Assembly (NCBI GenBank): GCA_963837495.1 | Contig: CAWINF010000001.1 | Span: 841,843 to 905,842 of the forward strand | Direction of reading: 5' to 3' | Source: an uncultured Acidobacteriota bacterium | Lineage (GTDB): Bacteria > Acidobacteriota > Thermoanaerobaculia > UBA5066 > Gp7-AA6 | DNA length: 64,000 nucleotides | Shown: positions 4,661 to 64,000 of the stretch, piece after piece | How the letters are laid out: the number at the start of each line of letters is the position of its first letter | How positions within the stretch are numbered: the first letter of the stretch is position 1 | Translations under genes and position numbers: made by a program | The notes under the pieces: model-generated | What the model was told of the DNA's origin: nothing | Databases searched by the model: none | The model's input: only the letters and a program-made list of their open reading frames with translations

Positions 4661-4690
4661 GACTTTTGTCAGCGGATAGACTCCGGCAGC

Positions 4691-38329: not shown

Positions 38330-41826
<3,497 letters not shown>

Positions 41827-41830
<4 letters not shown>

Positions 41831-43562: not shown

Positions 43563-43616
43563 CGGGTTACCTGCTACTACCAAACGCCGAAGCGTGGCGG
43601 AGTACGCTGAGTCGCT

Positions 43617-44414: not shown

Positions 44415-44419
44415 TCAGG

Positions 44420-47296: not shown

Positions 47297-47299
47297 CTC

Positions 47300-50200: not shown

Positions 50201-50677
50201 TTCGGCTACGCCGACAGCTTCGACGAGGCGACCGGCCGATACCGAGGCCTCCAAGTCGGCCGAAACGTCTCCATCTCGGACGAGGACTCTCACGGTCTAC
50301 TCGTCAAGCCCGAAGTTGCCGCTCGACAGCTAGCCCAGGAAACCGCCGCCTCTTCCTACCCCGCAGGCGCCGCCCCCACAGCTCTTCAAGCCAACGGTCC
50401 CGCAGCGACGGCGGCACCCCTCACCGCTCCCGCACCTCGCCTCCTCACGCGCTTCCACGGCTCCGTCCACCTTGACGCCTCCCGCCTAGGCCGAGACGCG
50501 GGCAGAATCGCTGAAGAAATCGTCCAACACCTAGCGGCCTTGGTAGGCTCCGACGTCGAAGTGACGTTGGAAATCCACGCCGCCGTCCCCACCGGCACCC
50601 CCGACCAGGTAGTCCGCACCGTATCCGAAAACTGCCGCACCTTGAGATTCACAGACTTTGGGTTTGAGGAAGATTAG
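47300..50677 (+). CDS. DUF499-family large P-loop ATPase
   Basis: NFGGGKTHSMLALYHLF Walker A; LILIDEWVAY Walker B; 1125 aa. Confidence 0.6.
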   Translation: MAITNQERVGKAMELLKDGLAPFVERELKAHHAQSWFEEAKAAVSEMQTSFLGSASAPKWDVGSLLVVMWNQWNLVFRKTLGQAERTLVSELRDARKRWAHQDAISGDDAYRTLDSASRLLTAVSAPQSDELEKMKMELLRVRFDEQVRSEKRKSAGAAIESAAAGTLKPWREVVTPHKDVASGRYQQAEFAADLWQVHLGEGTDEYRDPVEFFRRTYLTESLKGLLVGAVQRMAGHGGDPVVQLQTNFGGGKTHSMLALYHLFSKATLSQLPGAGAILNEAGVSKLPSVNRVVLVGNKISPGNPVTKPDGTVVRTLWGELAWQLGFAAGGAKEAKKAFQRVAPDDERATSPGDALRELMNEYGPCLILIDEWVAYARQLHDQSDLPAGSFETHFSFAQVLTESAKAAKKCLLVISLPASDTTGSPHAVADDVEVGGERGRAALDRLRNAVGRIEASWRPASAEESFEIVRRRLFEPLVEKAQFVARDTVARAFYDLYRTQHQEFPPECRDSDYENRLKAAYPIHPEVFDRLYNDWSTLVKFQRTRGVLRLMAAVIHSLWQKGDRNPLILPANISIDDPRVQFELTRYLSDNWVPVIEKDVDGPNVLPLRLDGEVPNLGKYAACRRVARTIYLGSAPTATAAHRGIEDRRIKLGCVMPGESPAVFGDALRRLAGAATYLYQDGPRYWYSTQPTVTKLAEDRAEQLKRDPDKVVKELESRISEDVTEDRREKTSRKGAFSRVHPLPHSGQDVPDDMDARLVILDIDHPYGKEPGNPAEAQANAILESRGNTPRLFRNTLVFLAVDQARLQDLDEAARRYLAWESILAEKVTLDLSPHQVKQAETQRTSADGAVTARLPEAYQWLLIPTQSTPQSPVKWQAVRLTGQDALAARASKKLRGDDSLVTGLGATVLRKYLDEVPLWRGDHVDIRQLGEDFARYLYLPRIKDTSVLIGAIRSGLNLITWEKDSFGYADSFDEATGRYRGLQVGRNVSISDEDSHGLLVKPEVAARQLAQETAASSYPAGAAPTALQANGPAATAAPLTAPAPRLLTRFHGSVHLDASRLGRDAGRIAEEIVQHLAALVGSDVEVTLEIHAAVPTGTPDQVVRTVSENCRTLRFTDFGFEED

Positions 50678-50733
50678 CGTTGCGCCTCGCTGAAAGCGTT
50701 TGCCCATCACCGTTCTCGAAAGAGAGGTAATCA

Positions 50734-52866
50734 ATGAGAATCTCAACCATCCTCGAAAAGATCGACGAGAAGCAGCTGTTCGTTCCCGCGTTTCAGCGCG
50801 AATACGTCTGGAAGCGCGAGGATGCGAAGTCGCTCATCGATTCGCTCATAAAGGAGTACCCGACGGGCACCATGCTGACCTGGGAGACGGCACACCCGCC
50901 AGAACTCAAGGGTCCGCACAAATACAACGAGAGACAGGGCGCCGTGCGCCTGCTCTTGGACGGCCAGCAGCGTGTCACAACTCTGTACATGCTCATGCGC
51001 GGGGAAATACCTGCGTATTACACGCTCGCGGAGATCATGACCGACACCCGCGGCCTGTATGTCAACCTGGCGACCCTCGAGCTTTCTTATTATATTAAGA
51101 CGAGAATGGAGACCGACCCCTACTGGCAGAATATCACCGACGTATTTCAGGGAAAAGTCAGCGCCTTTGACCTCCAGGCCTCCTTTGCCACGCTCAACAT
51201 AATGCTTAGCATGGAAGAGTTGAAGCAGCTCAACGAGAAGATTAACGTCGTCACACGGATTAAGGACAGAGAGTTCCCCGAACAGACGATACCCGTCAAG
51301 GCACACATCAGGCAAGCTATCGACATTTTCTACAAGGTCAATGCAAGCGGCGTCTCCCTTACCGACGCCGAACTTGCGTTAGCACAGATCTCAGGGTTCT
51401 GGCCCCAAGCTCGCGATCTCTTCAAGGCTAAGCTCGCCAAGCTCGCGAATGAGGGATTCGGCTTTCAGCTGGATTTCCTCGTCTATGTCTTGTTGGGTTG
51501 TCTGCACCACATGGGCTCCGACATGCGAAAGCTACACGATGAGGAGAAGAAGACAGATTTGCAAGCAGCATGGGAGCGGCTGGATACACAGGTTCTGGAC
51601 TACGTAGTGAATCTGTTGAGAGCGACCGCTTACGTCGACCACATTTCTGAGATCAACTCACCCTATGCGCTCGTGCCCATCATCGTATATTGCTTTGACA
51701 GAATCGGAAAGAACCTCTCCGATCTAGAGATTCGTAAGATGGTTAAGTGGTTCTATTACACTCAGATCCGAACCAGATATGTCAGCCAGTTGCCGCAAAA
51801 GCTCGACCGGGACCTCCGAACGCTGGTGGAATCGCAACAGCCGTTTGATGACCTGCTGCAGGTGATTGCTGAGGAACGACCCCTCCAAGTGTCGCCCTCG
51901 GAGTTTGTGGGCCGGGCGACGGGGCACCCGCTTTTCGGAATGATGCGCTGGTACCTCAAGAGCCGTGGCGCGGTCTGCCTGACCACCGGCCTCAGCCTAC
52001 GGAAGAATATGGGCAAGAAGTACCAGCTTGAACTGGACCATATCTTTCCCTTCTCCCGGCTCAAGAAGGCAGGTTACGGCAAGGGCAACCGTGTGAAGTA
52101 CGCGCTGGCACAGGAATTCACCAACCGGGCTCTTCTCACTCAGGTCGCCAACCGCTCGAAGGCGGCGATGGACGCCGCGGTGTACCTGGCCGGCGTGAAG
52201 AAGCAGTTTCCTAAGGCCCTCGAGTTGCAGTGCATTCCCGAGAACCCGGAGTTGTGGAAGATTGAGCGCTATGAGGGCTTTCTCGAGGCTCGACGCGAGA
52301 TTCTGGCATCGCATTTCAATGAGTTCCTCAACACGCTGACCGACACCGAAGAAACCGGCGCCCCAGCGACCCTCGAGGACCTGATCTCCGAGGGCGAGAG
52401 CAACGAACTGGAGTTCAAGGCGACCTTGCGCTGGGATCTCGAGAAAGGCGAAGTCAGTCACAAGATGGAGGGTGCCATCGTCAAGGCAGTCGCAGCGTTT
52501 GCCAATTCCCATGGTGGCACGCTACTGATTGGTGTGGACAACGATGGCCAGGCGGTTGGCCTGGAGCACGATTATACTTCGCTCGGTGACGCTGATAAGG
52601 ACAAGTTCGAGCGATGTCTTTACAGCCTCCTCTACCAGAGTGTCGGTAAAAGCTTCGTAACCACGAAGGTTACAGCCAGATTTCATGATGTTGCCGGAGC
52701 GGAGGTCTGCCAAGTGGATGTCGCGAAGGCCAAGGAGCCGATCGTCGTGGCGTCGAAAGACAAGAACGGCGTGGCCGTGGAGAAGTTCTACGTGCGTAGC
52801 GGAAACGCATCCCAAGAGATTCCGCTGAGCCAGATGAATGCATACCTAAAGGAACGGTTCAGCTGA
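50734..52866 (+). CDS. GmrSD-like type IV restriction enzyme: DUF262 (ParB-like) + DUF1524 (His-Me finger) + C-terminal AlbA_2/Schlafen-like domain
   Basis: LFVPAFQREYVWKRED...LLDGQQRVTTL; ...QLELDHIFPFS...NRALLTQVANRSK; C-terminal ESNELEFKATLRWD...AFANSHGGTLLIGVDNDGQ. Confidence 0.65.
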   Translation: MRISTILEKIDEKQLFVPAFQREYVWKREDAKSLIDSLIKEYPTGTMLTWETAHPPELKGPHKYNERQGAVRLLLDGQQRVTTLYMLMRGEIPAYYTLAEIMTDTRGLYVNLATLELSYYIKTRMETDPYWQNITDVFQGKVSAFDLQASFATLNIMLSMEELKQLNEKINVVTRIKDREFPEQTIPVKAHIRQAIDIFYKVNASGVSLTDAELALAQISGFWPQARDLFKAKLAKLANEGFGFQLDFLVYVLLGCLHHMGSDMRKLHDEEKKTDLQAAWERLDTQVLDYVVNLLRATAYVDHISEINSPYALVPIIVYCFDRIGKNLSDLEIRKMVKWFYYTQIRTRYVSQLPQKLDRDLRTLVESQQPFDDLLQVIAEERPLQVSPSEFVGRATGHPLFGMMRWYLKSRGAVCLTTGLSLRKNMGKKYQLELDHIFPFSRLKKAGYGKGNRVKYALAQEFTNRALLTQVANRSKAAMDAAVYLAGVKKQFPKALELQCIPENPELWKIERYEGFLEARREILASHFNEFLNTLTDTEETGAPATLEDLISEGESNELEFKATLRWDLEKGEVSHKMEGAIVKAVAAFANSHGGTLLIGVDNDGQAVGLEHDYTSLGDADKDKFERCLYSLLYQSVGKSFVTTKVTARFHDVAGAEVCQVDVAKAKEPIVVASKDKNGVAVEKFYVRSGNASQEIPLSQMNAYLKERFS

Positions 52867-52873
52867 GGAACCA

Positions 52874-53542
52874 ATGCGACGCCTCTTCACGTACTGCATA
52901 CCGTGGGACGAGGGAGGCGCTCCGAACCCTTTTTGGGGAATCTGCACGCTCGCGATCTGCAAGCCAGCCATTCGACGTACGGCACGCGTCGGCGACTGGG
53001 TTGCTGGAACCGGCTCCAAATACTCTCGAGGTAGCGACCTAAGTGGCCGCCTAGTCTACGCCATGGAAGTCTCCTCCATCATGACCCTTGCAGAGTACGA
53101 TGCCTGGACGCGGGACCATGCACCGAAGAAGATTCCTGATCTCAAGAAGAGGGATCTGCGAAGGCGCGTCGGCGACTCGATCTACGATTTCTCGGCTGGC
53201 CAGCCGCAGCAACGGCCAGGAGTCCATGGGAAAGGAAACATCAGGACAGATCTCAGCGGCGAATACGTACTGCTCTCCTTGAATTTCTACTATTTCGGCG
53301 ATCAAGCCGTCGTTGTGCCGGACTACCTCAGCCCCATCGTTCACCAGGCCCAGGGGCACAAGGTCAACGCGAACGGACCGTACGTGGAGCGGTTCCTCAA
53401 GTGGCTGAAAGCCCAGGGTTACCCTCGCAACTGCCTCTTTGGCAAACCTACACTGCTCGAAAGGGTCGCAACTGGCCTTGCTCAGCCTGCTCGAGCCCGG
53501 CGTCGCTGTGCTGAAGCCGACGAAGGGGCCCCAGAGTCATGA
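52874..53542 (+). CDS. Nmad2-like (nucleotide-modification-associated domain 2) protein; assignment from memory of the family N-terminal signature
   Basis: MRRLFTYCIPWDEGGAPNPFWGICTLAICKPAIRRTARVGDWVAGTGS. Confidence 0.4.
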   Translation: MRRLFTYCIPWDEGGAPNPFWGICTLAICKPAIRRTARVGDWVAGTGSKYSRGSDLSGRLVYAMEVSSIMTLAEYDAWTRDHAPKKIPDLKKRDLRRRVGDSIYDFSAGQPQQRPGVHGKGNIRTDLSGEYVLLSLNFYYFGDQAVVVPDYLSPIVHQAQGHKVNANGPYVERFLKWLKAQGYPRNCLFGKPTLLERVATGLAQPARARRRCAEADEGAPES

Positions 53543-54735
53543 ATCCTGTGGACCGTGGCGCACCCGGTGCTGCGATGGGTTCCATTGCCAGGGCCTCGCT
53601 CGTTCAAGAGGTCTACCGTTGTACCCACTGCGTTCCGCTGGTCTTACCCTTCGCCACTTGCACGGATGCAGGCCGCTTCTTCCGGTTTCCGCCGGTGATC
53701 GGAGCTCCAGGCGCCGCAGAAGTCCTTTTTGTGGGAATTAACCCCCGTGTTTCTCCCTCCAATCTTCCTTTGCACACCGCGCTGATGCGGGACATTTCCG
53801 CTTTCCAGGAACTCGCAGCTAATAGCTATCGCGAGAGGGACTACATCGGACCGCAAGGGCAGGAGAGTCACTATTCCCTTCATCTCTGGATTGCGAGTCA
53901 ACTGTTCCCCGGTCGTCGTTTCGCTTCCGTTGCCGCGGTAACCGAGTTGTTCTTCTGCGCGTCAGAATCTTCCGCAAGACTCCCGGTCGAGCAGAGCCCT
54001 TGCGCGGACAAGTATCTTGGCAGAGTACTAGCTTCGACGCGCCCTAAGCTGGTCGTTGCCGTCGGCAGCAGGGTTGCGAACTACTTGGCTGGGAGGTTTC
54101 CGAGGCAGGCACAGTACGCAATCGCGGCCTGGGGAGACCACGGTCGAGCGCCAATCATTCCGGTGCCGCATCCTAACTCTAGGGGCGAGAAGCACTCAAG
54201 AACGTTGAGGGCAGTAGAAGTTGCCCGGGAATATCTAATTTCGGGGAATGTGCCAGCCCTGCCCGCGGTATCGGCAACTACAGCGCGAGAACCGAGACGG
54301 TTATCGGCGTCGTTGAGAGGTCACGCTGGGCCCCGCGATGCCGGGCGGCGCGACGGGAGAGTGGATGCAACGCCAGCCGCACCACGCGCTAGCCGTTCTG
54401 AGCTCGCTCGGCTCGTGCAAGACCCCGAGCCCGGGAGCATACAGAGGGATTGGACCGGCAACGACAAGAGCGCCAGGAACCACAACGGCATTGTAGACCT
54501 GAGAGAGAGTCCGCTGAGGTTGCGCCTTTCCTGGAAGAGGAACCCAGATGACCAAGCCAAATTCATCGGGGTCTTTGATCTAGACCTTCCACGCCTTCTT
54601 GCTGCCAACTACATTAGAGTTGAGGGAAATCGGCCAAGTGCCGTTCGTCTTCGATTCTGGCATGGCTACGACGATGTCATCTACATCCAGGTCAATAGCC
54701 AGACCAGAGGTTTGCCGCTAGGGCGAATCGTGTAG
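53539..54735 (+). CDS. Uracil-DNA-glycosylase-superfamily-like N-terminal domain (~220 aa) fused to an unknown ~170-aa C-terminal domain; ATGA overlap with the Nmad2-like gene
   Basis: VLFVGINPRVSP (motif A position), ELFFCASESS, KLVVAVGSRVANYL, IIPVPHPNSRGE (motif B position). Confidence 0.4.
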   Translation: MNPVDRGAPGAAMGSIARASLVQEVYRCTHCVPLVLPFATCTDAGRFFRFPPVIGAPGAAEVLFVGINPRVSPSNLPLHTALMRDISAFQELAANSYRERDYIGPQGQESHYSLHLWIASQLFPGRRFASVAAVTELFFCASESSARLPVEQSPCADKYLGRVLASTRPKLVVAVGSRVANYLAGRFPRQAQYAIAAWGDHGRAPIIPVPHPNSRGEKHSRTLRAVEVAREYLISGNVPALPAVSATTAREPRRLSASLRGHAGPRDAGRRDGRVDATPAAPRASRSELARLVQDPEPGSIQRDWTGNDKSARNHNGIVDLRESPLRLRLSWKRNPDDQAKFIGVFDLDLPRLLAANYIRVEGNRPSAVRLRFWHGYDDVIYIQVNSQTRGLPLGRIV

Positions 54736-54761
54736 CGACGGCTACGGCGGGCCGTAGTGAG

Positions 54762-54850
54762 AAGGGGTCAGCCGTGCGCCTCGTGTATTTTCTGATTCCG
54801 GGCGACAGGCGATCCTGTCATCGTTTCCGGCGCCGGCGGGCGGGGAGAGG
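54762..54850. repeat. Partial copy (3-prime-of-relE end) of the ~360-bp relE repeat
   Basis: GGGGTCAGCCGTGCGCCTCGTGTATTTTCTGATTCCGGGCGACAGG... Confidence 0.6.
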
Positions 54851-54934
54851 TCGGCTAGGGGGGTCAGTCTTGTACGATGGTACTTTGCGTGGGGTTTCCG
54901 GGTCGACCGTCATTTCAATCGGCCTGGGAGAAGA

Positions 54935-55295
54935 AGGGTCAGCCGTGCGCTTCGTGTATTTCCTGATTCCGGGCGACAGGGTCATCGTTTCCGGCGCCGG
55001 CGGGCGGGCAGAGGTGTCTTCTGCTTCCTGGAAGAAGGGGCCAGGCCCGAGGCGGACGACCTTTCGCGCGAGCTCGTAGAGGCCATCATGCGCACCTTCG
55101 CGCCGGAGGCCGGCAGCCACGACGTAAACCATCCGGGCGGCAGGATCAACCGAAGAGATCAGGCGGTATCGCCGGCCAACCACCCGAAGGCTTCCAAAGC
55201 CCATGAGGTCTTCCCGGAGCGGCTTTCTCTGCCTTTCAGGATCACCCTGCAGACGTTTGGACCGATAAGGGGTCAGCCGTCCGCTTCGTGCACTG
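54935..55295. repeat. Full copy of the ~360-bp repeat carrying 5-prime-truncated relE on the minus strand, bounded by AAGGGGTCAGCCGT(G/C)CGCTTCGTG direct repeats
   Basis: Encodes ...RLQGDPERQRKPLREDLMGFGSLRVVGRRYRLISSVDPAARMVYVVAAGLRREGAHD... Confidence 0.6.
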
Positions 55296-55305
55296 TCGCC
55301 AATTG

Positions 55306-55599
55306 CTAAGAGCGGCGACGCGGCTTGGAGCGTTTTCGCCGCCCGCGTGGTTTCTTGATGCCGTAGAGCTCTCGAACCTCAGCAATCGTAGCTGACCGAT
55401 TCTTGCGGCGGCGGTCCTCGATCATTTCCCAGAAGCGGGGATTGCCCATCGTCAGGAGGTCTTCCAAATCCTCCCCCTCGACCCCGATAACCAGGGCGGC
55501 GGGCTTTCCGTGCTTTGTAATGAGCACGCGATCCTGCTGAGCCTTGGCGATGTACTCCGAGAGAGACGCTTTCGCATCGCGAACCGCTACGACTTTCAT
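55306..55599 (-). CDS. Phd/YefM-family antitoxin
   Basis: MKVVAVRDAKASLSEYIAKAQQDRVLITKHGKPAALVIGVEGEDLEDLL. Confidence 0.7.
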   Translation of the reverse strand: MKVVAVRDAKASLSEYIAKAQQDRVLITKHGKPAALVIGVEGEDLEDLLTMGNPRFWEMIEDRRRKNRSATIAEVRELYGIKKPRGRRKRSKPRRRS

Positions 55600-55892
55600 A
55601 AAATCTCCTCCGTTCTCTTTCTTTCTTTCCGCCGGACGGAACGAACCGTCACGGTCCGTCCCGATTCATCCACGTCGTAGAAAACCCGCAGGTCACCCAC
55701 GCGAAGCTGCCAGACCGGCCGCACCTGTTCCCACGGAGGCGCCAGACCGCTGAGCATCTTCCTCCTTCTGCTTGCCTCAGCAGGTTCGTGAGCCAGCTGC
55801 TTTTCGATGGCGTCGAGAACACGTTTCCTCTCGGAGGCTCGAAGCTCCCCGATTTCCGCAACCGCATCCTGATCGAGCCGGATCGCGAACAT
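55596..55892 (-). CDS. ParE/RelE-family toxin (complete); stop overlaps Phd start (ATGA); TATAAT 13 nt upstream of ATG
   Basis: MFAIRLDQDAVAEIGEL...WQLRVGDLRVFYDVDESGRTVTVRSVRRKE. Confidence 0.6.
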   Translation of the reverse strand: MFAIRLDQDAVAEIGELRASERKRVLDAIEKQLAHEPAEASRRRKMLSGLAPPWEQVRPVWQLRVGDLRVFYDVDESGRTVTVRSVRRKERKRTEEIL

Positions 55893-56049
55893 CGTGACTA
55901 CAATTATAGTCTCTAGATCCAGCGCTGCCAACCCGTGCAAATAGAGAGATCCGAGGCGGGGGAAGAACTGGGGTCGGGCTTGAATATCGGGTGTTGAGCC
56001 GAAACAATTCCGACTCCACCTTAGCCGTTGGGTGGTGTTTCGGGTCGAT

Positions 56050-56441
56050 CGGGAAGAAGGGGTCAGCCGTGCGCTTCGTGTATTTCCTGATTCCGGGCGA
56101 CAGGCAATCCAGTCATCGTTTCCGGCGCCGGCGGGCGGGGAGAGGTGTCTTCTGCTTCTTGGAAGCAGGGGCCAGGCCGAGTTGGACGATCTTCGCGCGA
56201 GCTCGTAGACGTCATCGTGCGCACCTTCGCGCCGCAGGCCGGCAGCCACGACGTAAACCAACCGGGCGGCAGGATCAACCGAACAGATCAGGCGGTATCG
56301 CTGGCCAACCACCCGAAGGCTTCCAAAGCCCATGAGGTCTTCCCGGAGCGGCTTTCCCTGCTTCTCAGGATCACCCTGCAGACGTTTGGACGTGTCGAAG
56401 AGTTGCTGCCGTACTCGTCGGTCGGCAACGCCGGCGAGCAT
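56050..56441 (-). pseudogene. Repeat copy with near-full-length relE-like gene (MLAGVADRRVRQQLFDTSKRLQGDPEKQGKPLRED...) whose 3-prime end is frameshifted and fuses into the downstream ORF
   Basis: Compared with other copies, a 1-nt indel near ...YELARK. Confidence 0.5.
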
Positions 56442-56639
56442 CTTGGACGCGGTCGTCGTCCAGAGGACCTCGCAGGCGGGAGTGGGGGAAGAGCGGGGTC
56501 AATCGTCTATCGGTGTATTACGGATGCATTAGCCGGAGCTGGCGGTGCTGATTCGCCGGGCCATCGTGACCAGGTGCAGGGCGAAGGCAGTTCGAAGGGT
56601 CGATCCGCGCGACCTGGGCCCCGGGTCAGTTGTCGCTGA

Positions 56640-56771
56640 TGCGCGGAAGCCGCGATCGGATGGCGTTTCTGACTCTCTTCGCAATCCGGACCGCCTCATC
56701 GGCCTCCCGGCGTGTGATCGGTTCCCAGTCTCCCGGATAGCGAGCCTCGACCGCGTAGCGCTTCAGAAGTC
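56640..56771 (-). pseudogene. HEPN-toxin C-terminal fragment (...LLKRYAVEARYPGDWEPITRREADEAVRIAKRV)
   Basis: Motif only; 5-prime part replaced by the adjacent parE gene. Confidence 0.35.
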
Positions 56772-57077
56772 CTACCTCTTGAGGCGATCGGTCCAGTAGC
56801 GGGGCCGGCGACTTTGGTGGCCGACGGCCAGGATGCGGATCATGTCCGATGCGATCAGGTAATAGAGGTTGTAGGGAAACCGACGGAGCACCTTGCGTCG
56901 GACGCCCCTTCGATGGACTACCGGAGAGGCTTCCGGGTGATCCAGGATGAACCGGATGCTTCTACTGACTTCCTCCAGGAAGCTCCGAGCAATCGGAGAA
57001 GGCGCCTCGTCTCGGTAGTAACGTCCGGCTTCAAGAAGGTCGGCCCTGGCGTCGGGATGAAACTGCCAGCTACGCAA
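56772..57077 (-). CDS. ParE-family toxin
   Basis: ...VLRRFPYNLYYLIASDMIRILAVGHQSRRP. Confidence 0.7.
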   Translation of the reverse strand: MRSWQFHPDARADLLEAGRYYRDEAPSPIARSFLEEVSRSIRFILDHPEASPVVHRRGVRRKVLRRFPYNLYYLIASDMIRILAVGHQSRRPRYWTDRLKR

Positions 57078-57306
57078 GCAGGTCGCGGAACTCCTTCATG
57101 ACTTTGTCGCCAGGAATTCCCTTAACCTTGCCCTGTTCCCACTCTTCCAATCGCCGTTCTGTCTCCTCGAGCCACAGCGCCTCGAATTCTGCCGGCGACA
57201 GCTTCTCTTCCTCCTCATCCAGACTTCGGAGCAGCCGGCCGGCGAGCCTGGCGCGCTCTTTGTGGCCGAGCTTCAAAGCAGCGGCAACGATCTCTTCGGT
57301 GGTCAC
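57070..57306 (-). CDS. Addiction-module antitoxin, TIGR02574-like; GTG start
   Basis: VTTEEIVAAALKLGHKERARLAGRLLRSL...EFEALWLEETERRLEEWEQGKVKGIPGDKV. Confidence 0.6.
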   Translation of the reverse strand: MTTEEIVAAALKLGHKERARLAGRLLRSLDEEEEKLSPAEFEALWLEETERRLEEWEQGKVKGIPGDKVMKEFRDLLA

Positions 57307-57329
57307 GAGCCAATGATACCTCGAGCTCC

Positions 57330-57530
57330 ACAAGCAGGTCCGGGGCCAGGCCGAGGCGGACGACCTTTCGCGCCAGCTCGTAGAGGTCATCGTGCGCACC
57401 TTCGTGCCGCAGGCCGGCAGCCACGACGTAAACCAACCGGGCGGGAGGATCAACCGAACAGATCAGGCGGTATCGCTGGCCAACCACCCGAAGGCTTCCA
57501 AAGCCCATGAGGTCTTCCCGGGATGAAATG
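57330..57530. repeat. Partial copy of the relE repeat
   Basis: Aligns to the central 200 bp of the 54935-55295 copy. Confidence 0.55.
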
Positions 57531-57679
57531 GGATCGGTCCTGAATTCATGCATTATTACGGTGGGCAGCCGTCAGAACTCGGAAAGGTTCTCATGACTCT
57601 ACTTCTTCGAGCTGAAAGGGTATCGAGCGTGTACACAATTGTTGACACACATGAGATACCGTGGCAGAATCGCTTCGAG

Positions 57680-57946
57680 ATGAAGACGACGACGATCCGG
57701 GAGTTCCGAAAGGATGTCAGCGAGTTGCTGCGCGGCAGGGATGCTGTCCTGGTGACCCGGCATGGCAAGCCCGCCGGTGTCCTCTACCCCCTCACCGATC
57801 CGCGCAAACTGCCGATGAAGGTTCGCCGCAAGCTTTACCTGGAGCTCTCCGAAGGAATCGCCAGGCAGCTCAAGACCAAAGGGATAGCCGAAGAGCAGCT
57901 CCAGCATGACTTCGAGGATTTTAAGAAGCGTCGCCGCCGACAGTAA
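57680..57946 (+). CDS. Phd/YefM-like antitoxin
   Basis: MKTTTIREFRKDVSELLRGRDAVLVTRHGKPAGVLYPL. Confidence 0.6.
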   Translation: MKTTTIREFRKDVSELLRGRDAVLVTRHGKPAGVLYPLTDPRKLPMKVRRKLYLELSEGIARQLKTKGIAEEQLQHDFEDFKKRRRRQ

Positions 57947-58328
57947 CGTTCTCCTCTCGGCGGCCGTCGGTCATGCGGCGCGGCGGGTCTTCGAACGGGC
58001 GCCGAGACTCCTCGTCGTCACGACGGAAGCCAATCTGGCCGAAGTTCAAGCGTATTTGCCTTCCATGTCGGAGGCCTACGGTCTCGATCTGCTCGAGGTG
58101 CAAGAGGCCCTGGCAGCTCTGCCGATCAGGTTCTACAACGTAAGGTGGTATCGGAGCCGCATTCCCGAAGCCAGGAGATACCTGCAGGATCGCGATCCCG
58201 ACGACGTTGCCCTGGCGGCGCTGGCCCTCAAGCTCCAGATTCCCATTTGGTCCAATGACCGGGACTTCGAAGGCATGCCGATCGAGATCTATCCCACAGC
58301 GAAGCTCTTGAAGGCGCTCGGTCTCTGA
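57906..58328 (+). CDS. PIN-domain toxin (VapC-like)
   Basis: VAADSNVLLSAA...DPDDVALAALALKLQIPIWSNDRDF. Confidence 0.65.
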   Translation: MTSRILRSVAADSNVLLSAAVGHAARRVFERAPRLLVVTTEANLAEVQAYLPSMSEAYGLDLLEVQEALAALPIRFYNVRWYRSRIPEARRYLQDRDPDDVALAALALKLQIPIWSNDRDFEGMPIEIYPTAKLLKALGL

Positions 58329-58418
58329 TGGTCAGAGGCGCCTTCCGTAGAGCGAGATGTCGTCGTGTTTGACAACGTCGACTGCGCCGGGATGAAGGTC
58401 AACGACGCGGTGCGGCAT
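58329..58418 (-). pseudogene. Truncated parE (MPHRVVDLHPGAVDVVKHDDISLYGRRL*), cut where the vapBC-like module begins
   Basis: First 10 codons identical to the intact parE at 61194. Confidence 0.45.
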
Positions 58419-58668
58419 CCACAGACCCCAGGATCTGGCGTCTTGCCTCTTCCCAGGGAATGGTCTGCACCGATCCGGAATCCAATTCGCTCAGGCGGCG
58501 AGCGATCTCGACACTCCACTCGGCCTCGGCGCCTTCATCGACCTCAGCCTCGAGGCTTTCAATCAGACGACCGGCAACGGCCGCCAGGGACTCCGGCGCA
58601 AGCCGCAAAGCGTCTCTGAAAATCTCCTCGGCTTCTCTAGTCACGAGAGAAATGCTAGCGCGGGGCAT
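58399..58668 (-). CDS. TIGR02574-like antitoxin (paralogue of 61175-61471)
   Basis: VTREAEEIFRDALRLAPESLAAVAGRLIESLEAEVDEGAEAEWSVEIARRLSELDSGSVQTIPWEEARRQILG. Confidence 0.6.
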   Translation of the reverse strand: MPRASISLVTREAEEIFRDALRLAPESLAAVAGRLIESLEAEVDEGAEAEWSVEIARRLSELDSGSVQTIPWEEARRQILGSVDAAPRR

Positions 58669-58674
58669 TTCTCG

Positions 58675-59030
58675 GGGGGAAGAAGGGGTCAGCCGTGCGC
58701 TTCGTGTATTTCCTGATTCCGGGCGACAGGCACTCCTGTCATCGTTTCCGGCGCCGGCGGGCGGGGAGAGGTGTCTCCTGCTTCCTGGAAGAAGGGGCCA
58801 GGCCGAGGCGGACGACCTTTCGCGCGAGCTCGTAGAGGCCATCGCGCGCACCTTCGTGCCGCAGGCCGGCAGCCACGACGTAAACCAACCGGGCGGCAGG
58901 ATCAACCGAAGAGATCAGGCGGTATCGCTGGCCAACCACCCGAAGGCTTCCAAAGCCCATGAGGTCTTCCCGGAGCGGCTTTCCCTGCTTTTCAGGATCA
59001 CCCTGCAGACGTTTGGACGTGCGCCTGGTC
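58675..59030. repeat. Full copy of relE repeat
   Basis: GAAGAAGGGGTCAGCCGTGCGCTTCGTGTATTTCC ... GCAGACGTTTGGACGTG. Confidence 0.6.
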
Positions 59031-59045
59031 GGGAGTGGTGCCGTG

Positions 59046-59480
59046 TCACCTGAGATCGTAGAGATAGAGGAGCGCTGCCCATCCGCTTGGGAGGGAGTTG
59101 GAAGGGCCGGGGAGGTCGGCATACCGGACGGCCATTTCAAGGAAGAAGCGGGCGTGGAAGAAGGCCTCGAGGATCGGACGCGTGTGATGGTCCCAGGCCG
59201 CGTTCATGCCAGTCGAGAACTTCTTGCCCGTTCCCTCGCCGACGATCTGGAGGAATCGGGCGTTCAACGGACGGGTCGGAACGAGCAGGCGGAGTGCAGA
59301 GACGATCTTTTCGGTCTGGTTCTGCAGCGCGAACACTTTGAAGCTGTGATGATAGAAGCGATAAACCGGATCCTCGTAGCCCCAATGGCTGTTTGATTCC
59401 TCCAGAATCTTTCTGAGGTCCTGCAGACGTGCCTTTAGATTGCCGAGCAGCTCCAATTCCGGGGTCCGTTCAATCATCAC
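59046..59480 (-). CDS. Hypothetical 144-aa protein downstream of the DUF433/DUF5615 pair
   Basis: Coherent ORF MMIERTPELELLGNLKARLQDLRKILEE...; no family recognised. Confidence 0.35.
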   Translation of the reverse strand: MMIERTPELELLGNLKARLQDLRKILEESNSHWGYEDPVYRFYHHSFKVFALQNQTEKIVSALRLLVPTRPLNARFLQIVGEGTGKKFSTGMNAAWDHHTRPILEAFFHARFFLEMAVRYADLPGPSNSLPSGWAALLYLYDLR

Positions 59481-59490
59481 ATCGCTCGGG

Positions 59491-59850
59491 CTAGTCTTCC
59501 TCGTCCGAGGTGCGGATTCTCAAGCGAGTGGGCTCAGCCGTGATGAGAGCGCCGGCGAGGAGATCTCTCCCGTGCCGTGTCAAGATCTCCTGGCAGGCTG
59601 TGGCCTGCCGGCGAGCAGAAACTCCGACGAGACGAATGATGCCGCTGTGCGGACGGCCTTGGACTACCGCGAGCTCGCCGAAATCCTTGTCGAGGGTGAC
59701 GAGTATTCGTTCCTCGGCGCTCGCCCTCGAGAGAACGACGTCGTCACCCGGGTCCTCCGGCCAGTCTCCCGCCCAGACAACGTCATGGCCTAGAGCGACG
59801 AGAGCGGGTTTCGAGCCTCCCCAGACGCATGCGTCGAGGAGAAGTTTCAC
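59491..59850 (-). CDS. DUF5615 (PIN-like) protein, intact
   Basis: MKLLLDACVWGGSKPALVALGHDVVWAGDW...ILVTLDKDFGELAV. Confidence 0.75.
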   Translation of the reverse strand: MKLLLDACVWGGSKPALVALGHDVVWAGDWPEDPGDDVVLSRASAEERILVTLDKDFGELAVVQGRPHSGIIRLVGVSARRQATACQEILTRHGRDLLAGALITAEPTRLRIRTSDEED

Positions 59851-60099
59851 CTAGCTGCCGGAAGTCACCAGCGGCTCGACTCGCTCATGCGCGACGAGCT
59901 TGTGAGCGTACGCGAGGCATGCCTGGATGTCTTCAGGTTCGAGCCACGGATAACCGGCGAGGATCGTGTCGGGTGTGTCGCCGGCGGCCAGCATCCCAAG
60001 CACGTGCTCGACGGCCAGCCTATGGCCGCGAATGATTGGCTTTCCGGCGAAGATCGCAGGATTCACTGTGATCCTCGTCAGGAGTGTCTTCTCGTCCAC
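59851..60099 (-). CDS. DUF433 protein, intact
   Basis: ITVNPAIFAGKPIIRGHRLAVEHVLGMLAAGDTPDTILAGYPWLEPEDIQACLAYA. Confidence 0.75.
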   Translation of the reverse strand: MDEKTLLTRITVNPAIFAGKPIIRGHRLAVEHVLGMLAAGDTPDTILAGYPWLEPEDIQACLAYAHKLVAHERVEPLVTSGS

Positions 60100-60179
60100 G
60101 CCGAGAGTATAGACCCGAGCCGGCTGGGGCCGGTTCCCACTTCTCGCAGCCCGGCGGGAAGTAACGGCACGCGAGGGCT

Positions 60180-60560
60180 TATTGGGGAAGAAGGGGTCAG
60201 CCGTGCGCTTCGTGTATTTCCTGATTCCGGGCGACAGGCAATCCTGTCATCGTTTCCGGCGCCGGCGGGCGGCGAGAGGTGTCTTCCGCTTCCTGGAAGA
60301 AGGGGCCAGGCCGAGGCGGACGACCTTTCGCGCGAGCTCGTAGACGTCATCGCGCGCACCTTCGTGCCGCAGGCCGGCAGCCACGACGTAAACCAACCGG
60401 GCGGCAGGATCAACCGAAGAGATCAGGCGGTATCGCTGGCCAACCACCCGAAGGCTTCCATGGCCCATGAGGTCTTCCCGGAGCGGCTTTCCCTGCTTCT
60501 CAGGATCACCCTGCAGACGTCTGGACGTGTCGAAGAGTTGCTGCCGTACTCGTCAGGAGC
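60180..60560. repeat. Full copy of relE repeat (relE lacks start; in-frame TGA upstream of RVRQQLFDTSRRLQGDPE)
   Basis: Same boundaries as the 58675 copy. Confidence 0.6.
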
Positions 60561-60632
60561 GAAGCTGGGTCAGTCTCGCATACTGGTACTTTGAGAAAGA
60601 ATGAGGGAAATGAGCGACTCAAAGCTACCGGC

Positions 60633-60900
60633 TCAGGAAGATCGAGTGCGGAGCGAATCGAGTGAAATATTCGCCGGTTCGCGGGAGCGCTCGTCGAGAA
60701 GCCTCATGAGGGCCGGGTTAGCTCTCATGAGTTCGACCTCGTGTTGGAAGTCTTCGACGGCCCCGATCACGTACTCCTCTCCTTCGGAAGTGCGGAGGAT
60801 TACCGGCTCGTCGTGAGCCATGGCCAGAAGCTCCTGGAGAGTGAGCGCGCGCGAAGGGAGTTCGATGGTTTTCACAATGTGATCCTTCACGAAAGACCTA
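60633..60900 (-). CDS. Small antitoxin-like protein (start uncertain)
   Basis: IVKTIELPSRALTLQELLAMAHDEPVILRTSEGEEYVIGAVEDFQHEVELM. Confidence 0.35.
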
Positions 60901-61194
60901 CCGGTGTCTCCAGAATCCCGGTCGTCGCTTGCCGTGGGCGACCGCAACGATTTGGATAGCCGAGGAAGTCAGGCGATAGACGACGCTGAAGGGATATCTT
61001 CGGAGAAGAAACCTTCGGGTGCCAAGCACATATGAAGGCCATGCCTCGGGGCGCTCGACGATTCTGTCGAGCGCTCCTTCGATCTCGTTGAAAAACGCGC
61101 GGGCAGCAATCGCGTCGCGCGACTGGTACCAGTCGTGCGCTTGCCGGATATCTTCGATTGCGGCGGGATGAAGGTCAACGACGCGGTGCGGCAT
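60898..61194 (-). CDS. ParE-family toxin, intact
   Basis: MPHRVVDLHPAAIEDIRQAHDWY...RRFLLRRYPFSVVYRLTSSAIQIVAVAHGKRRP. Confidence 0.7.
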   Translation of the reverse strand: MPHRVVDLHPAAIEDIRQAHDWYQSRDAIAARAFFNEIEGALDRIVERPEAWPSYVLGTRRFLLRRYPFSVVYRLTSSAIQIVAVAHGKRRPGFWRHR

Positions 61195-61471
61195 CCACGG
61201 ACCCCAGGATCTGGCGTCGCGCCTCTTCCCAGGGGACGGTCTGCACCGACCCAGAATCCAACTCGGTCAGGCGGCGAGCGATCTCGACACTCCACTCGGC
61301 CTCGGCGTTCTCATCGACCTCCGACTCGAGGCTCTCGATCAGACGACCGGCAACGGCTGCCCGGGACTCGGGTGCGAGCCGCAAGGCGTCTCTGAGGATC
61401 TCCTCGGCTTCTCTAGTCACGATCAAATGGTAGCACGGGGATCCCGGCTGTCGCCTCGACCAGGAGCGCAC
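61175..61471 (-). CDS. TIGR02574-like antitoxin
   Basis: VTREAEEILRDALRLAPESRAAVAGRLIESLESEVDENAEAEWSVEIARRLTELDSGSVQTVPWEEARRQILG. Confidence 0.6.
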   Translation of the reverse strand: MRSWSRRQPGSPCYHLIVTREAEEILRDALRLAPESRAAVAGRLIESLESEVDENAEAEWSVEIARRLTELDSGSVQTVPWEEARRQILGSVDAAPRR

Positions 61472-61519
61472 GGGGGATCATGGTTGACGTCACGGGAGAA
61501 GGCGACCTGGCGCAGTGGG

Positions 61520-61690
61520 GTGCGGAAGAAGGGGTCAGCCGTGCGCTTCGTGTATTTCCTGATTCCGGGCGACAGGCAATCCTGTCATCGTTTCCGGCGC
61601 CGGCGGGCGGGCAGAGGTGTCTTCTGCTTCCTGGAAGAAGGGGCCAGGCCCGAGGCGGACGACCTTTCGCGCGAGCTCGTAGAGGCCATC
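61520..61690. repeat. Partial copy of relE repeat
   Basis: GAAGAAGGGGTCAGCCGTGCGCTTCGTGTATTTCC ... GAGGCCATCATGCC. Confidence 0.55.
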
Positions 61691-61768
61691 ATGCCTGAAG
61701 TTCCTCGGTCGTCATTCGCACGAACGGCCTGGGTTCGAGGGATTATCCTGAGGCAACCGGCAGGCCCG

Positions 61769-62130: not shown

Positions 62131-62830
62131 TGCCCCACGATGTTGCGGCCCCTCTGGCCCGGCGGATCCCGCAAAGGGCGACGTAGAGGGCCGAGTGCCA
62201 CGTGGACTTCCCAGGGTACGTGTAGCGATCACCCTCGCAGGGCTTGTGGAAGTGCCCGAGGAAGGCGTGGGCCAGGCCGCCGCGCTCGATGTCGGCTGCC
62301 CGGAACGGCGCGTGAGCGGCCTTCCCGGCGTCCTGAAATGCGAAGAACCCGAGCTCGGATCCGTGGAACAGGGCGAGATGGACGCCACCGCGGTCAACAT
62401 GGAAGCCCTCGAGTAAGTTTCGGGTATTGGCGGGCGCGCAATGCGCTGCGCCCCAGAGAGTCAGGCCTTCGGCCAAAGTGACGGGAGCCAGCCGATCGCT
62501 CTCGAAGACGTGGACGTTGGCGCTCCACCGGACGCGCCGGTAGAGGCTGGCAGGACCGAGCCAGTCATGGTTGCCGGGCGCGATGTATATCCGCGTCTGA
62601 CCCAGTCCCTCAAACGTCTGCCTCAGAAATTCGCCGGTCTCCGAAGAGAAGCACTCCTGCTCATAGAGATCGCCGCCGCAGAGCACAGCGTCAACGCGCA
62701 ACTCGGTGGCCAGCGACACGATCTTCCGTAGCGTGTCCCGAAGGCTCTGCCGCCGCTTGCGCGCGAGAAGCGGATCAAACCACCGGAACGGCGTGTCCAG
62801 GTGAAGATCCGAGAAAAGCAGCAGCTTCAT
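62123..62830 (-). CDS. Metallophosphoesterase (calcineurin-like)
   Basis: MKLLLFSDLHLD, GGDLYEQ, APGNHDW, LFHGSE, GHFH. Confidence 0.7.
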   Translation of the reverse strand: MKLLLFSDLHLDTPFRWFDPLLARKRRQSLRDTLRKIVSLATELRVDAVLCGGDLYEQECFSSETGEFLRQTFEGLGQTRIYIAPGNHDWLGPASLYRRVRWSANVHVFESDRLAPVTLAEGLTLWGAAHCAPANTRNLLEGFHVDRGGVHLALFHGSELGFFAFQDAGKAAHAPFRAADIERGGLAHAFLGHFHKPCEGDRYTYPGKSTWHSALYVALCGIRRARGAATSWGIP

Positions 62831-62967
62831 CTGTACCTGATCCGCAGATTAGTGTTCAGAGAGACGTGGCGGACTTCTGAGATGCTACGCCTCTCGAGAC
62901 CGAAAGGCGAACTCAGCTCGTAATTCGGGGCGGGGCTTCCAGGTGCCAGACGTGCAACTACACCCCG

Positions 62968-63243
62968 GTGGCGGTGTTTCGAGCTCGCGTCAACCGGTGC
63001 GTGGTCGAGTACCTGGCGATCGCCCATGTCCTGGGCCGTAAACCGACCAGTGGAGACCTTCAGCACTCCGGCCAGAAGGGTTGGAGAGCTACCTACGCCC
63101 GAATCCTCCGCCACGTCGGAGCAATGTCGAAGTTCGAGCAGGAGCTGGCCCGGCGCGGATTGGGACTATCCCTGCGAGCCGGCCCGCCCCGAGACCGTGT
63201 AGAAGGTGACGAAAGCCGGCGCGGACCCATGGCGGAGAGCTGA
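62968..63243 (+). CDS. Hypothetical small protein; followed by GGGTCCTGCGCGCGGGACCC hairpin
   Basis: ORF only. Confidence 0.2.
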   Translation: MAVFRARVNRCVVEYLAIAHVLGRKPTSGDLQHSGQKGWRATYARILRHVGAMSKFEQELARRGLGLSLRAGPPRDRVEGDESRRGPMAES

Positions 63244-63343
63244 GGGTCCTGCGCGCGGGACCCGGTTTCGGCGAGGGCTGCTCGGCCTTGTGGTCGGCCT
63301 TTGCTTCACCTGGCCCGTTTCCGCATATCGCAGCGGGGCGAGC

Positions 63344-63643
63344 TCATCCTGCTCGACGGAGGGGCTTTGGAAGACTCGCAAGTCGGCTGACAGCCCGGTG
63401 GAGGTCCACGGCTTTCTGCGCATTGAGCCAGAACTCGGGAGTGGTGCGAAATGACGCGGCGAGCTTCAAGGACATTTCGGCCGTCACCGAGCTGCGGCCG
63501 TTGACGATCCGGTTGACCACTTTGACGTCGCATCCGAGATGGCCCGCCAAACGCCTTTGGGTCATGCCCAGAGGGATCAGAAACTCCTCGCGAAGGATCT
63601 CGCCGGGCGAAGTTGGCTTCCGGCTTCTCGATCTGTCTCTCAC
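63344..63643 (-). CDS. higA: HigA-family HTH antitoxin
   Basis: PGEILREEFLIPLGMTQRRLAGHLGCDVKVVNRIVNGRSSVTAEMSLKLAASFRTTPEFWLNAQ. Confidence 0.75.
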   Translation of the reverse strand: MRDRSRSRKPTSPGEILREEFLIPLGMTQRRLAGHLGCDVKVVNRIVNGRSSVTAEMSLKLAASFRTTPEFWLNAQKAVDLHRAVSRLASLPKPLRRAG

Positions 63644-63652
63644 AACCAGCTC

Positions 63653-64000
63653 TCAGTGATAGTCGCGGATATCGACCGCGGCGGGTCCAGACGTCGTCCA
63701 GCGAAAGACCACTCTCCACTGATCGTTGATTCGAATGCTGTGAAACCCATCGAGTTTCCCCTTCAAGGCCTCCAAGCGATTGCCCGGCGGCGATGCCAGA
63801 TCCCTCAAGGCAGCCGCGTAGTCCAGCATGTCAAGCTTCCTCGTGGCGATCTTCGCCACAGCGGACCAACCAACGCCTTTGGGAAGCTTCCCTTGCAGAA
63901 AGAACCGCTCGAGCGCCTGGCTGGCGAAGCTCTGGATCGCCCCCGCAGAAAACCATACCTCGATGAGGTATACCCCGTCAAGGTATCGCCCCCCTGATCT
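63653..64000 (-). CDS. higB: HigB-family toxin; 5-prime end close to or beyond the window edge, start codon not resolved
   Basis: ...FASQALERFFLQGKLPKGV...LKGKLDGFHSIRINDQWRVVFRWTTSGPAAVDIRDYH. Confidence 0.6.
   Translation of the reverse strand, partial: RSGGRYLDGVYLIEVWFSAGAIQSFASQALERFFLQGKLPKGVGWSAVAKIATRKLDMLDYAAALRDLASPPGNRLEALKGKLDGFHSIRINDQWRVVFRWTTSGPAAVDIRDYH

Follow-up and report, generated by a model that had tools for sequence, protein, structure and literature searches.

A toxin-antitoxin array punctuated by front-truncated relE copies and a RAYT-like end motif at the edge of an Acidobacteriota defence island

Introduction

In REPtrons, the gene for a Y1 transposase known as a RAYT (REP-associated tyrosine transposase, also TnpA-REP; REP, repetitive extragenic palindromic sequence) is flanked by inverted copies of short repeats (Ton-Hoang et al. 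2012, PMC3333891; Bertels et al. 2017, PMC5581495). Such repeats are also found in intergenic DNA downstream of genes, where the enzyme has been proposed to cut and rejoin the DNA (PMC3333891, PMC5581495). In this paper we describe an array of around 7 kb (54760-61692) within a stretch of 64,000 nucleotides from an uncultured Acidobacteriota bacterium (contig CAWINF010000001.1), the whole of which is referred to here as the window. The array lies at the edge of a defence island and comprises six toxin-antitoxin (TA) modules, each of which is followed by a dead, front-truncated copy of the toxin gene relE. To our knowledge, the role of RAYTs has been unclear since their discovery, and they have so far been linked only to the spread of short REPs and REPINs.

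The components of this locus, namely relE remnants, type II TA modules and RAYT genes with flanking repeats, are known already. Literature searches for RAYT- or REP-linked TA arrays and for integron-like TA arrays with direct repeats turned up no description of a RAYT-type motif punctuating gene modules, and they yielded neither gene-module accretion for REP/RAYT nor a recurrent front-truncated duplication of the upstream gene at inserts. The searches suggest that what is new is the combination of a non-palindromic RAYT-type motif between gene modules with front-truncated duplicates at every insert. With middling confidence, we read the region as an accretion hotspot at the edge of the defence island, where modules were inserted behind a relE-associated site, S, and truncated duplicates of relE and S were left behind, probably through the action of a RAYT.

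The array and its truncated relE copies

The repeat that defines the array can be located with a 24-mer, AAGGGGTCAGCCGTGCGCTTCGTG (up to 3 mismatches), which has seven matches in the window, all on the + strand and between 54762 and 61552, and none in shuffled sequence. Multiple alignment and a repeat search delimit seven copies (+ coordinates throughout, with the gene on the - strand):

54760-54850, - strand: relE copy A, 90 bp
54931-55263, - strand: relE copy B, 333 bp
56055-56487, - strand: relE copy C, 433 bp, the longest
57342-57521, - strand: relE copy D, 180 bp
58680-59021, - strand: relE copy E, 342 bp
60188-60560, - strand: relE copy F, 373 bp
61526-61692, - strand: relE copy G, 167 bp, the first in the gene direction

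A preliminary description of this DNA had reported a unit of about 360 bp at seven places. The repeat is indeed present at these places, and the alignment which that description had proposed defines the unit as relE fragments with a sharp 3' end and a variable 5' end; the lengths listed above speak against a uniform unit. The sharp end (left in + coordinates) is common to all copies but D, the 5' cut points differ, and a 75-nt trailer behind relE is retained in six of the seven. The common start that had been given for the repeat, GAAGAAGGGG..., is present in the other copies and wholly missing from D. Likewise, the GACAGG-CAAT-CCTGTC hairpin exists, although it is broken in B by a 7-nt deletion and in C by a mismatch, and its folding signal is not significant. 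Pairwise identities among the copies are 93-98%, with copy A being 95.6% identical to C, E, F and G; the most similar pair, at 98%, is B and G, which occupy opposite ends of the array.

Read on the minus strand, the repeat encodes the 3' part of a RelE/ParE-family toxin gene (126-127 aa when intact), which confirms the original assignment to the C-terminal part of RelE. Homologues of this full length are common in metagenomes. There are 308 RelE homologues at E<=1e-3, the best of which (P0001, 126 aa) is 94% identical; most carry a precomputed PF05016 match and the JGI name 'mRNA interferase RelE/StbE'. From the names that homologues carry, the lineage is Acidobacteriota and probably Thermoanaerobaculia-like. 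In related contigs (L014, L015, L009 and L058-L062) the intact relE follows a Phd-type antitoxin gene.

All seven copies are defective, just as had been claimed, in that every one lacks a start codon and B, C and G are also frameshifted. Remnant A holds only the last codons of relE and the trailer with S. An extra C shifts the frame of remnant B, whose S is at 54928-54962, and another does the same in remnant G (S at 61526-61558). Only around 5-9 nt are missing from remnant C, the start codon among them (it lacks the first two codons), and one nucleotide is deleted in its tail (S at 56053-56086). Remnants E (S at 58679-58712) and F (S at 60187-60220) are in frame, the former with no start codon and the latter with a stop codon before it. 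Remnant D is cut on both sides. Its 5' cut follows a site of the motif M described below, and its 3' cut falls exactly at an internal pseudo-core, S2 CTGGCCCC, in the relE tail, where CTGGCCCCTTCTTCC is a look-alike of CTGACCCCTTCTTCC in S; because the cut falls there, D is without S. Upstream, remnant E extends into a 133-aa open reading frame (ORF; 58739-59140, - strand) with a TTG start, which overlaps the end of the gene for a 144-aa protein in another frame. This ORF is probably meaningless, though it makes E the sole remnant with a possible start codon.

Substitutions relative to intact relE are distributed 29:34:29 over the three codon positions, from which neutral decay follows, and judged on these grounds the seven copies are dead, neutrally drifting scars. 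A 5' piece of relE is not found anywhere in the window, and the cognate Phd (L014/L015 query, tblastn) has no match anywhere in the 64 kb either. Since no relE 5' pieces and no antitoxin remain in the window, a plain insertion of modules into relE is excluded.

It might be supposed that the array arose in the computer, by collapse or expansion of the repeat during assembly, a danger that the preliminary description had itself raised. This was checked against contigs from an independent short-read assembly (run ERR11718635), three of which (L001, L057 and L017) are 100% identical to the window. One of them, L001, does stop within copy A (54841), so that the short-read assembly breaks at the first repeat. 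However, the 926-nt L057 crosses two internal junctions, covering remnant D, an M site, a Phd-PIN module and a cut ParE gene, and every array junction is unique in sequence, with the relE copies differing by 2-7%. L017 corresponds to 62235-63719, to the right of the array. As the junctions are unique and the independent contigs identical, the array is not an assembly artefact, and we regard the likelihood of one as close to nil.

The end motif

Site S, the end shared by the relE copies, reads GGAAATACACGAAGCGCACGGCTGACCCCTTCTTCC in the gene direction and closes the 75-nt trailer after the relE stop codon. Similar sequences are found at the other border of the relE remnants, at the ends of other modules and in the metagenome contigs L015 and L016. 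Alignment of 13 instances gives a motif, M, of around 37-40 nt, of which S is one member. In the gene direction M is AATACC-N7-8-CAAGACTGACCCC-N1-3-TTCTCCCC, which on the + strand becomes GGGAGNAA-N-GGGGTC(A/G)G-NCTTG-N6-8-GGTATT. Its core is CTGACCCC, and the variants GGGGTCAG and GGGGTCTG can be told apart.

When the 64-kb window was scanned with an nhmmer profile of M (threshold E<0.01), 13 matches were obtained, all between 54758 and 61558 and in a single orientation, with none in the other 57 kb. The shorter octamer GGGGTCRG is also concentrated in the array, as 8 of its 16 occurrences in the window lie within these 7 kb. Apart from the S sites given above for the individual remnants, the sites are:

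54758-54791, - strand: S closing remnant A, the last site of the array (nhmmer E=1.9e-4; 24-mer match)
54857-54886, - strand: M of a near-empty module made up of 41 nt and M (E=1.5e-4; GAC core 11 nt before remnant A)
55264-55296, - strand: S-like M closing the Phd/ParE module (nhmmer and 24-mer match; remnant B begins 9 nt past the GAC core)
55963-55995, - strand: M between the S of C and TA module 1 (E=2e-4; 82% identical to L015 5316-5370)
56488-56521, - strand: M joined directly to codon 3 of remnant C (E=1.4e-3; CCCC microhomology)
57524-57556, - strand: M joined 11-12 nt after its core to remnant D (E=2.5e-5; 90% identical to the L015 M at 5278-5317)
60559-60592, - strand: M closing module 5, joined around 14 nt after its core to remnant F (E=7e-5)

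The S-like M at 55264-55296 has the core and spacer of S together with a different upstream block. The 22-bp direct repeats previously noted around copy B resolve into this site and the S of B itself. It is the end motif of around 40 nt that looks functional; the 360-bp repeat is not in itself a recombination element, but rather the decayed 3' end of a RelE gene.

The relE remnants all begin 6-14 nt after a (C/T)(C/T)GA(C/T)C core, although the core-like sequence at the 5' junction of remnant G, GACGACC, is weak. On the relE side, the junctions share no common motif and show 0-4 nt of microhomology. A 'GAC', considered as a cleavage motif, lies near 4-5 of the 7 breakpoints there, and thus inconsistently. 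The number of residues in the C-run at the end of S also differs from copy to copy, in the range of 2 to 6 (TTCTTCC, then C0-4). A common 3' end combined with variable 5' truncation, short microhomologies at the 5' junctions and a C-run of variable length are all features that retro-copies would display, in which an RNA ending at S was reverse-transcribed at a nicked M in a target-primed manner and incomplete synthesis gave rise to the 5' truncation. Such an origin is nonetheless very unlikely, as no reverse transcriptase is found in the scanned ORFs of the window (the array flanks and the large ORFs from around 11 kb) or in the gene lists of the related loci, S does not resemble a terminator-like 3' end, and the presence of whole TA modules between the copies is left unexplained.

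With its co-oriented, small and TA-rich cassettes the region also resembles sedentary integron arrays, whose recombination site, attC, is an imperfect palindrome (R''-L''...L'-R') that folds as a single strand and contains a GTTRRRY core. The preliminary description had likened the region to a chromosomal integron cassette array or a tandem integration hotspot, while pointing out that the repeat is far longer than an attC and that the window contains no integrase. The likeness holds insofar as modules stand in one line, a short conserved site closes each of them and remnants of one gene lie between, and it fails on the features that define integrons. M is without dyad symmetry, and single-stranded folding of seven S/M regions (for the S region on both strands) gave z-scores of -1.1 to +1.1, with no signal. 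No RYYYAAC/GTTRRRY pair is present in the S/M site sequences, no integrase was encountered among the scanned ORFs of the window, and Rfam yields no RNA family in 53-64 kb. Moreover, the modules have promoter-like sequences of their own (read by eye), and the motif matches RAYT flanks instead. The structure of attC thus contradicts the integron reading, and a sedentary chromosomal integron array, or a CALIN (cluster of attC sites lacking an integron integrase), with S and M as divergent attC sites and IntI encoded beyond the window, is extremely improbable.

Several other roles for M were considered and set aside. As a promoter, it would lie at distances from the next start codon that vary from 39 to 110 nt, and two modules show their own -10/-35-like sequences (by eye); readings as a sigma-54 promoter or one of the extracytoplasmic function type, also made by eye, were inconsistent across copies. 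A short ORF, or a Shine-Dalgarno sequence with ATG, does not fit, since the frame is lost between the blocks (N7 versus N8). The likeness to a Tn3-family inverted repeat is limited to the first 6-8 nt (GGGGTC), and the conserved motif runs past the GGGG.

Beyond the window, site S has no match in the species-representative genomes and none in the viral contigs, and two in the metagenome contigs, namely in L015 and L016. The scan of viral contigs with M returned only single, uninformative matches, and the plasmid collection contained nothing matching the array.

The intervening modules

The families of the intervening genes were assigned by Pfam scans. In keeping with what had been reported, diverse TA genes are found between the relE copies, including PhdYeFM with ParE, Unstab_antitox with ParE (twice), PhdYeFM with PIN_2, and DUF433 with DUF5615, and translation confirms a HEPN fragment, which is C-terminal. 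From left to right, the modules and the gene bordering them are:

53539-54735, convergent: uracil-DNA glycosylase (UDG)-like gene, 398 aa, with its stop at 54735, 23 nt from the last site of the array
55306-55892, - strand: TA module 1, ParE-family toxin (55596-55892; PF05016) and Phd/YefM antitoxin (55306-55599; PF02604)
56628-57306, - strand: TA module 2, Unstab_antitox (57070-57306) and ParE (56772-57077), with a HEPN fragment
57680-58328, + strand, inverted relative to the others: TA module 3a, Phd/YefM antitoxin and PIN_2 toxin (100% identical in L057)
58371-58646, - strand: TA module 3b, Unstab_antitox (58399-58646) and only the first 16 or so ParE codons (repeat search and Pfam)
59046-60099, - strand: module 4, DUF433 (59851-60099), DUF5615 (59491-59850) and a 144-aa protein (59046-59480)
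60633-61420, - strand: module 5, Unstab_antitox (61175-61420), ParE (60898-61194) and an orphan antitoxin-like ORF (60633-60947)

In front of module 1 there is a promoter-like TTGGCA-N17-TATAAT, read by eye. The 3' end of module 2 is fused to the front-truncated C-terminal HEPN fragment (56628-56780). Module 3b (58371-58646) is 89% identical to 61147-61422. The 144-aa protein of module 4 belongs to no family in Pfam; the module closes with a degenerate core, CCCGACC, that lies 6 nt from remnant E. In module 5, neither Pfam nor NCBIfam assigns a family to the orphan ORF, which has no toxin partner and shares 50 nt with the end of ParE; the M site follows 40 nt after it.

Read in the gene direction, from right to left, the array starts with remnant G and S, followed by antitoxin, ParE and orphan antitoxin with M, and then by remnant F and S. 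Next come DUF433, DUF5615 and the 144-aa gene with the degenerate core, remnant E and S, and the antitoxin with cut ParE together with the inverted Phd-PIN pair and M. Remnant D is then fused to antitoxin, ParE and the HEPN fragment with M, after which remnant C and S precede a further M and the ParE-Phd module with its S-like M. The array closes with remnant B and S, the 41 nt with M, and remnant A and S, up to the stop codon of the convergent UDG-like gene. TA and relE modules therefore alternate in six cases out of six, and this makes a free, integron-like shuffling among equivalent sites unlikely. The inserts are only 0.1-1.2 kb in size and carry no integrase; five of the six have a clear M at their end and the remaining one has the degenerate core.

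The same rearrangement in related loci

The arrangement of a gene with its core, an insert ending in a core, and a front-truncated copy of the same gene with its core recurs in related metagenome loci. In contig L009, where relE is 79% identical, a full-length ychF (4400-5514) is followed by a CAGACCCC core. Around 3.8 kb past ychF, right after CTGACCCAGAGC, there is a 255-nt copy of the ychF 3' end and core (9354-9608) that is 98% identical, and this is followed by Phd-RelE and two further M sites. The ychF gene encodes a housekeeping GTPase, and the L009 insert carries DUF433, YoeB and a PMT-family glycosyltransferase. In L015, two copies of a gene for a 144-aa protein and its M, 97% identical over 263 nt, flank an insert that holds an ATPase fragment, an antitoxin-ParE pair and M, with a third, older fragment after it. 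In the same contig, a csaA-like (tRNA-binding) fragment, truncated at its front, comes immediately after S and has an M of its own at its end. The modules are also mobile, as the antitoxin-ParE pair of module 2 (56777-57325) is found in L015 (548-1096) at 96% identity with different neighbours.

These loci bear on the possibility that the remnants are what is left of several full Phd-RelE-S cassettes, from which adjacent deletions anchored at M took out the antitoxin together with the 5' portion of the toxin gene, only those deletions that killed the toxin having survived. Selection against an orphan toxin is established TA biology, the remnants do start just past the M core, no antitoxin is left, and the cut ParE (58371) and HEPN (56780) genes show that other deletions occurred. 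On the other hand, seven independent full cassettes and seven independent deletions would be needed, the strict alternation with other modules would be unexplained, and the truncated copies in L009 and L015 stand beside 97-98% identical full genes only a few kb away. The persistence of these full genes points to duplication rather than loss as the origin of the truncated copies in L009 and L015, and a decay of full cassettes is in our estimation unlikely.

In more distant relatives, the segment next to a single Phd-RelE varies among strains and is rich in TA and defence genes; in other relatives, Phd-RelE is a stable single-copy pair. Seven long-read contigs (L002-L008, from around 10333 onward) have identical Phd-RelE and upstream genes, and diverge strongly in the set of genes that lies behind relE (PLD-helicase, HigBA, ParE, a kinase and others), which marks a strain-variable hotspot. 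A single pair at the border of a variable region would also be expected if a tyrosine or serine integrase had built the array by tandem accretion at the relE 3' end, or if circles of relE and S had recombined in the Campbell manner, with partial target copies arising as they do at tRNA genes. The fixed 3' boundary and the front-truncated target copies that flank every insert agree with this. Once direct repeats are present, RecA-dependent excision and re-integration are to be expected, and the close similarity of B and G fits homologous exchange. Yet no integrase is present among the window ORFs scanned, the duplicated lengths range from 90 to 433 nt where one integrase and att pair would give one length, and the same signature is found with the unrelated ychF, 144-aa, csaA and RAYT genes, always beside CTGACCCC. 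Homologous recombination alone leaves unexplained why the truncated copies abut the M core. We consider this explanation rather unlikely, although it comes ahead of the decay of full cassettes.

A link to RAYT genes

Accretion with the help of a RAYT was suggested by the company that M keeps in related genomes, whose RAYT-type Y1 (HUH) transposase genes have ends that M resembles, as far as sequence comparison can tell. Contig L009 encodes a 316-aa Y1_Tnp protein. L027, a contig from a metagenome-assembled genome of the Acidobacteriota that was retrieved solely via the M pattern, encodes a 317-aa homologue within 300 nt of the M match and also holds a TA module with three M sites behind it. 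Both proteins combine Y1_Tnp with a weak match to the Bac_DnaA_C helix-turn-helix (HTH) domain, and four RAYT genes in all carry Y1_Tnp and Bac_DnaA_C. Both also match the NCBIfam model REP_Tyr_transpos ('REP-associated tyrosine transposase'), the L027 protein with 80.8 bits against a cut-off of 80. The family is very large, and many of its members are named RayT by JGI.

In all four lineages inspected, which are related loci only, the RAYT gene is flanked by inverted GGGGTC(A/T)G repeats:

L009 RAYT: inverted repeat GGGGTCAGGTCCGTATTATGTATTAAGG
L027 RAYT: inverted repeat GGGGTCAGATCTACAATATAAA
L052-L056 RAYT (50% identical protein): inverted repeat GGGGTCAGGTCTTGAGGTTGTAG
L063 RAYT (Thermoanaerobaculia): inverted repeat GGGGTCTGATCTTTATTATA

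The part common to M and these repeats is essentially GGGGTCAG(N)TC(TTG) and an AT-rich block, a modest similarity. The rearrangement signature is also seen at the 3' end of the RAYT gene, in both L027 and L063: 29-34 nt past the right repeat, the final 40-66 nt of the gene recur as a front-truncated copy that carries a repeat of its own (L027 3440-3640; L063 2810-2940). We infer the link between M and RAYTs from position, orientation and this shared signature. Tandem duplications of 'GACCCC + 9-11 nt' were also seen at the ends of RAYT genes, and in L052 (447-4669) and L053 (744-4966) a unit consisting of a gene for an NMT1-like binding protein and the RAYT is duplicated in tandem, where other samples have a single unit.

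A proposed course of events

Under the reading that we favor, accretion behind S, the array would have started from a Phd-RelE cassette with a 75-nt trailer ending in a non-palindromic S of around 40 nt. Small modules, mostly of type II TA and each with its own M at the 3' end, would have been inserted serially and directly behind S, with every insertion leaving a duplicate of S and of a variable stretch of relE upstream of it. The outcome would be the strict alternation of TA modules ending in M with front-truncated relE copies ending in S, and the intact Phd-RelE at the head of the array would have been lost later. Most likely, M is the DNA site cognate to a Y1 (HUH) transposase of the RAYT type, which would carry a DnaA-C-like HTH and be encoded elsewhere in the genome. 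This enzyme would nick at the tail of the core, and the variable 5' end would be fixed upstream, either by a second break without specificity or by a template switch. The two blocks of M (an AT-rich block, 7-8 nt, and then CTGACCCC) would suit a two-domain protein of the HTH and HUH kind. We infer both the action of a RAYT on M in the source genome and the order and chemistry of these events.

A number of observations weigh against this course of events. M is non-palindromic, unlike classical REPs. The distance between junction and core varies over 6-14 nt and the relE side has no common cleavage motif, which is a poor fit to precise cleavage by an HUH enzyme. The similarities among the copies ignore their order in the array; with B and G being 98% identical at opposite ends, later homologous exchange, conversion or reshuffling must be assumed. 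The degenerate scan with M gave 34 matches in the species-representative genomes, which is about the number estimated for chance, and only that in L027 is clearly genuine. The M profile matches the RAYT-flanking repeats weakly (E around 2), and neither a RAYT nor any other recombinase is found in the Pfam-scanned ORFs at the array flanks and among the large ORFs from around 11 kb. Finally, the related loci examined amount to only a handful.

A broader proposal, which we put forward tentatively and think somewhat doubtful, is that RAYTs with a DnaA-like HTH run a system of gene-module capture in the Acidobacteriota. The non-palindromic 3' site of around 40 nt would serve both as the mobile end and as the next landing site, so that TA and defence modules pile up head to tail in an HUH-based functional analogue of the integron, with truncated relE and S as by-products. 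If true, this would provide a concrete function for RAYTs. The present locus and its relatives tie a RAYT-associated motif to the head-to-tail accumulation of TA modules beside a defence island and to a reproducible rearrangement signature. If the link holds, it would represent a second, integrase-free route to cassette arrays and would help to explain the clustering of TA and defence genes in the Acidobacteriota. Even without the link to an enzyme, M is a practical marker of module boundaries in poorly studied genomes.

The surroundings of the array

The defence island, annotated with Pfam, spans 37175-54735 and lies directly to the left of the array:

from around 37 kb: HNH protein and SNF2 helicase with NOV_C
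41827-43562: DarT-DarG, then Hypoth_Ymh
44420-47296: DUF1156
47300-50677: HEPN_Swt1 and DUF499
50734-52866: GmrSD and AlbA_2
52874-53542: Nmad2
53539-54735: the UDG-like protein

To the right of the array, a metallophosphoesterase is found, as well as a HigA antitoxin. At 63344-63859, this HigA stands beside an N-terminally shortened HigB ORF, which matches only positions 27-91 of the PF05015 profile and is possibly another decayed toxin.

Comparison with known systems

Sedentary integron arrays, such as the Vibrio superintegron, and CALINs share with this locus the mostly co-oriented small modules, many of them TA, that are each closed by a conserved site, as well as the occurrence of the same module with different neighbours in another genome. 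They differ in that the present sites have no attC hairpin and no R''/R' or GTTRRRY cores, that the scanned ORFs of the window include no IntI, and that the modules have their own promoter-like sequences; an alternation with the remnants of one target gene is not produced by integrons. The pdif modules of Acinetobacter plasmids, which are Xer-dependent, have 28-bp XerC/XerD sites with inverted arms and alternating orientation. They are likewise small, often TA, bounded by short sites and found in varying contexts, but M is without inverted arms and all 13 copies are in one orientation.

Elements of the IS200/IS605 family have different ends with subterminal hairpins, and insert 3' of a fixed tetra- or pentanucleotide without duplication. 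In contrast, there are no hairpins at M, the RAYT genes have inverted ends, and duplications of 40-433 nt flank the inserts. REPtrons come closer, in that a Y1 HUH gene is flanked by inverted copies of a repeat (here in related loci only) and the same kind of repeat is intergenic and downstream of genes. Unlike REPs, M forms no hairpin or palindrome and is without a GTAG head; over the 64 kb covered, it is clustered in one 7-kb array in a single orientation rather than dispersed, and it stands between whole gene modules, in association with front-truncated duplicates of genes. The RAYTs concerned also differ from the usual ones by their extra DnaA-C-like HTH domain.

In the tandem accretion of islands at the 3' ends of tRNA or protein genes, inserts are flanked by a partial 3' copy of the preceding gene and repeated use of one site builds an array, as is the case here. 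However, the length duplicated in the present array is variable, the inserts are 0.1-1.2 kb and without integrase, and the target is a motif in the trailers of many genes rather than one gene. Lastly, Shyamala, Schneider and Ames reportedly described, in 1990, tandem chromosomal duplications in Salmonella whose join points carry REP sequences. There, too, a short extragenic repeat marks the join of duplicated segments. The Salmonella duplications are large, RecA-independent and lie between two REPs, whereas the duplicated segments here have one end at the motif and the second at a non-specific position within a gene, and are separated by foreign modules.

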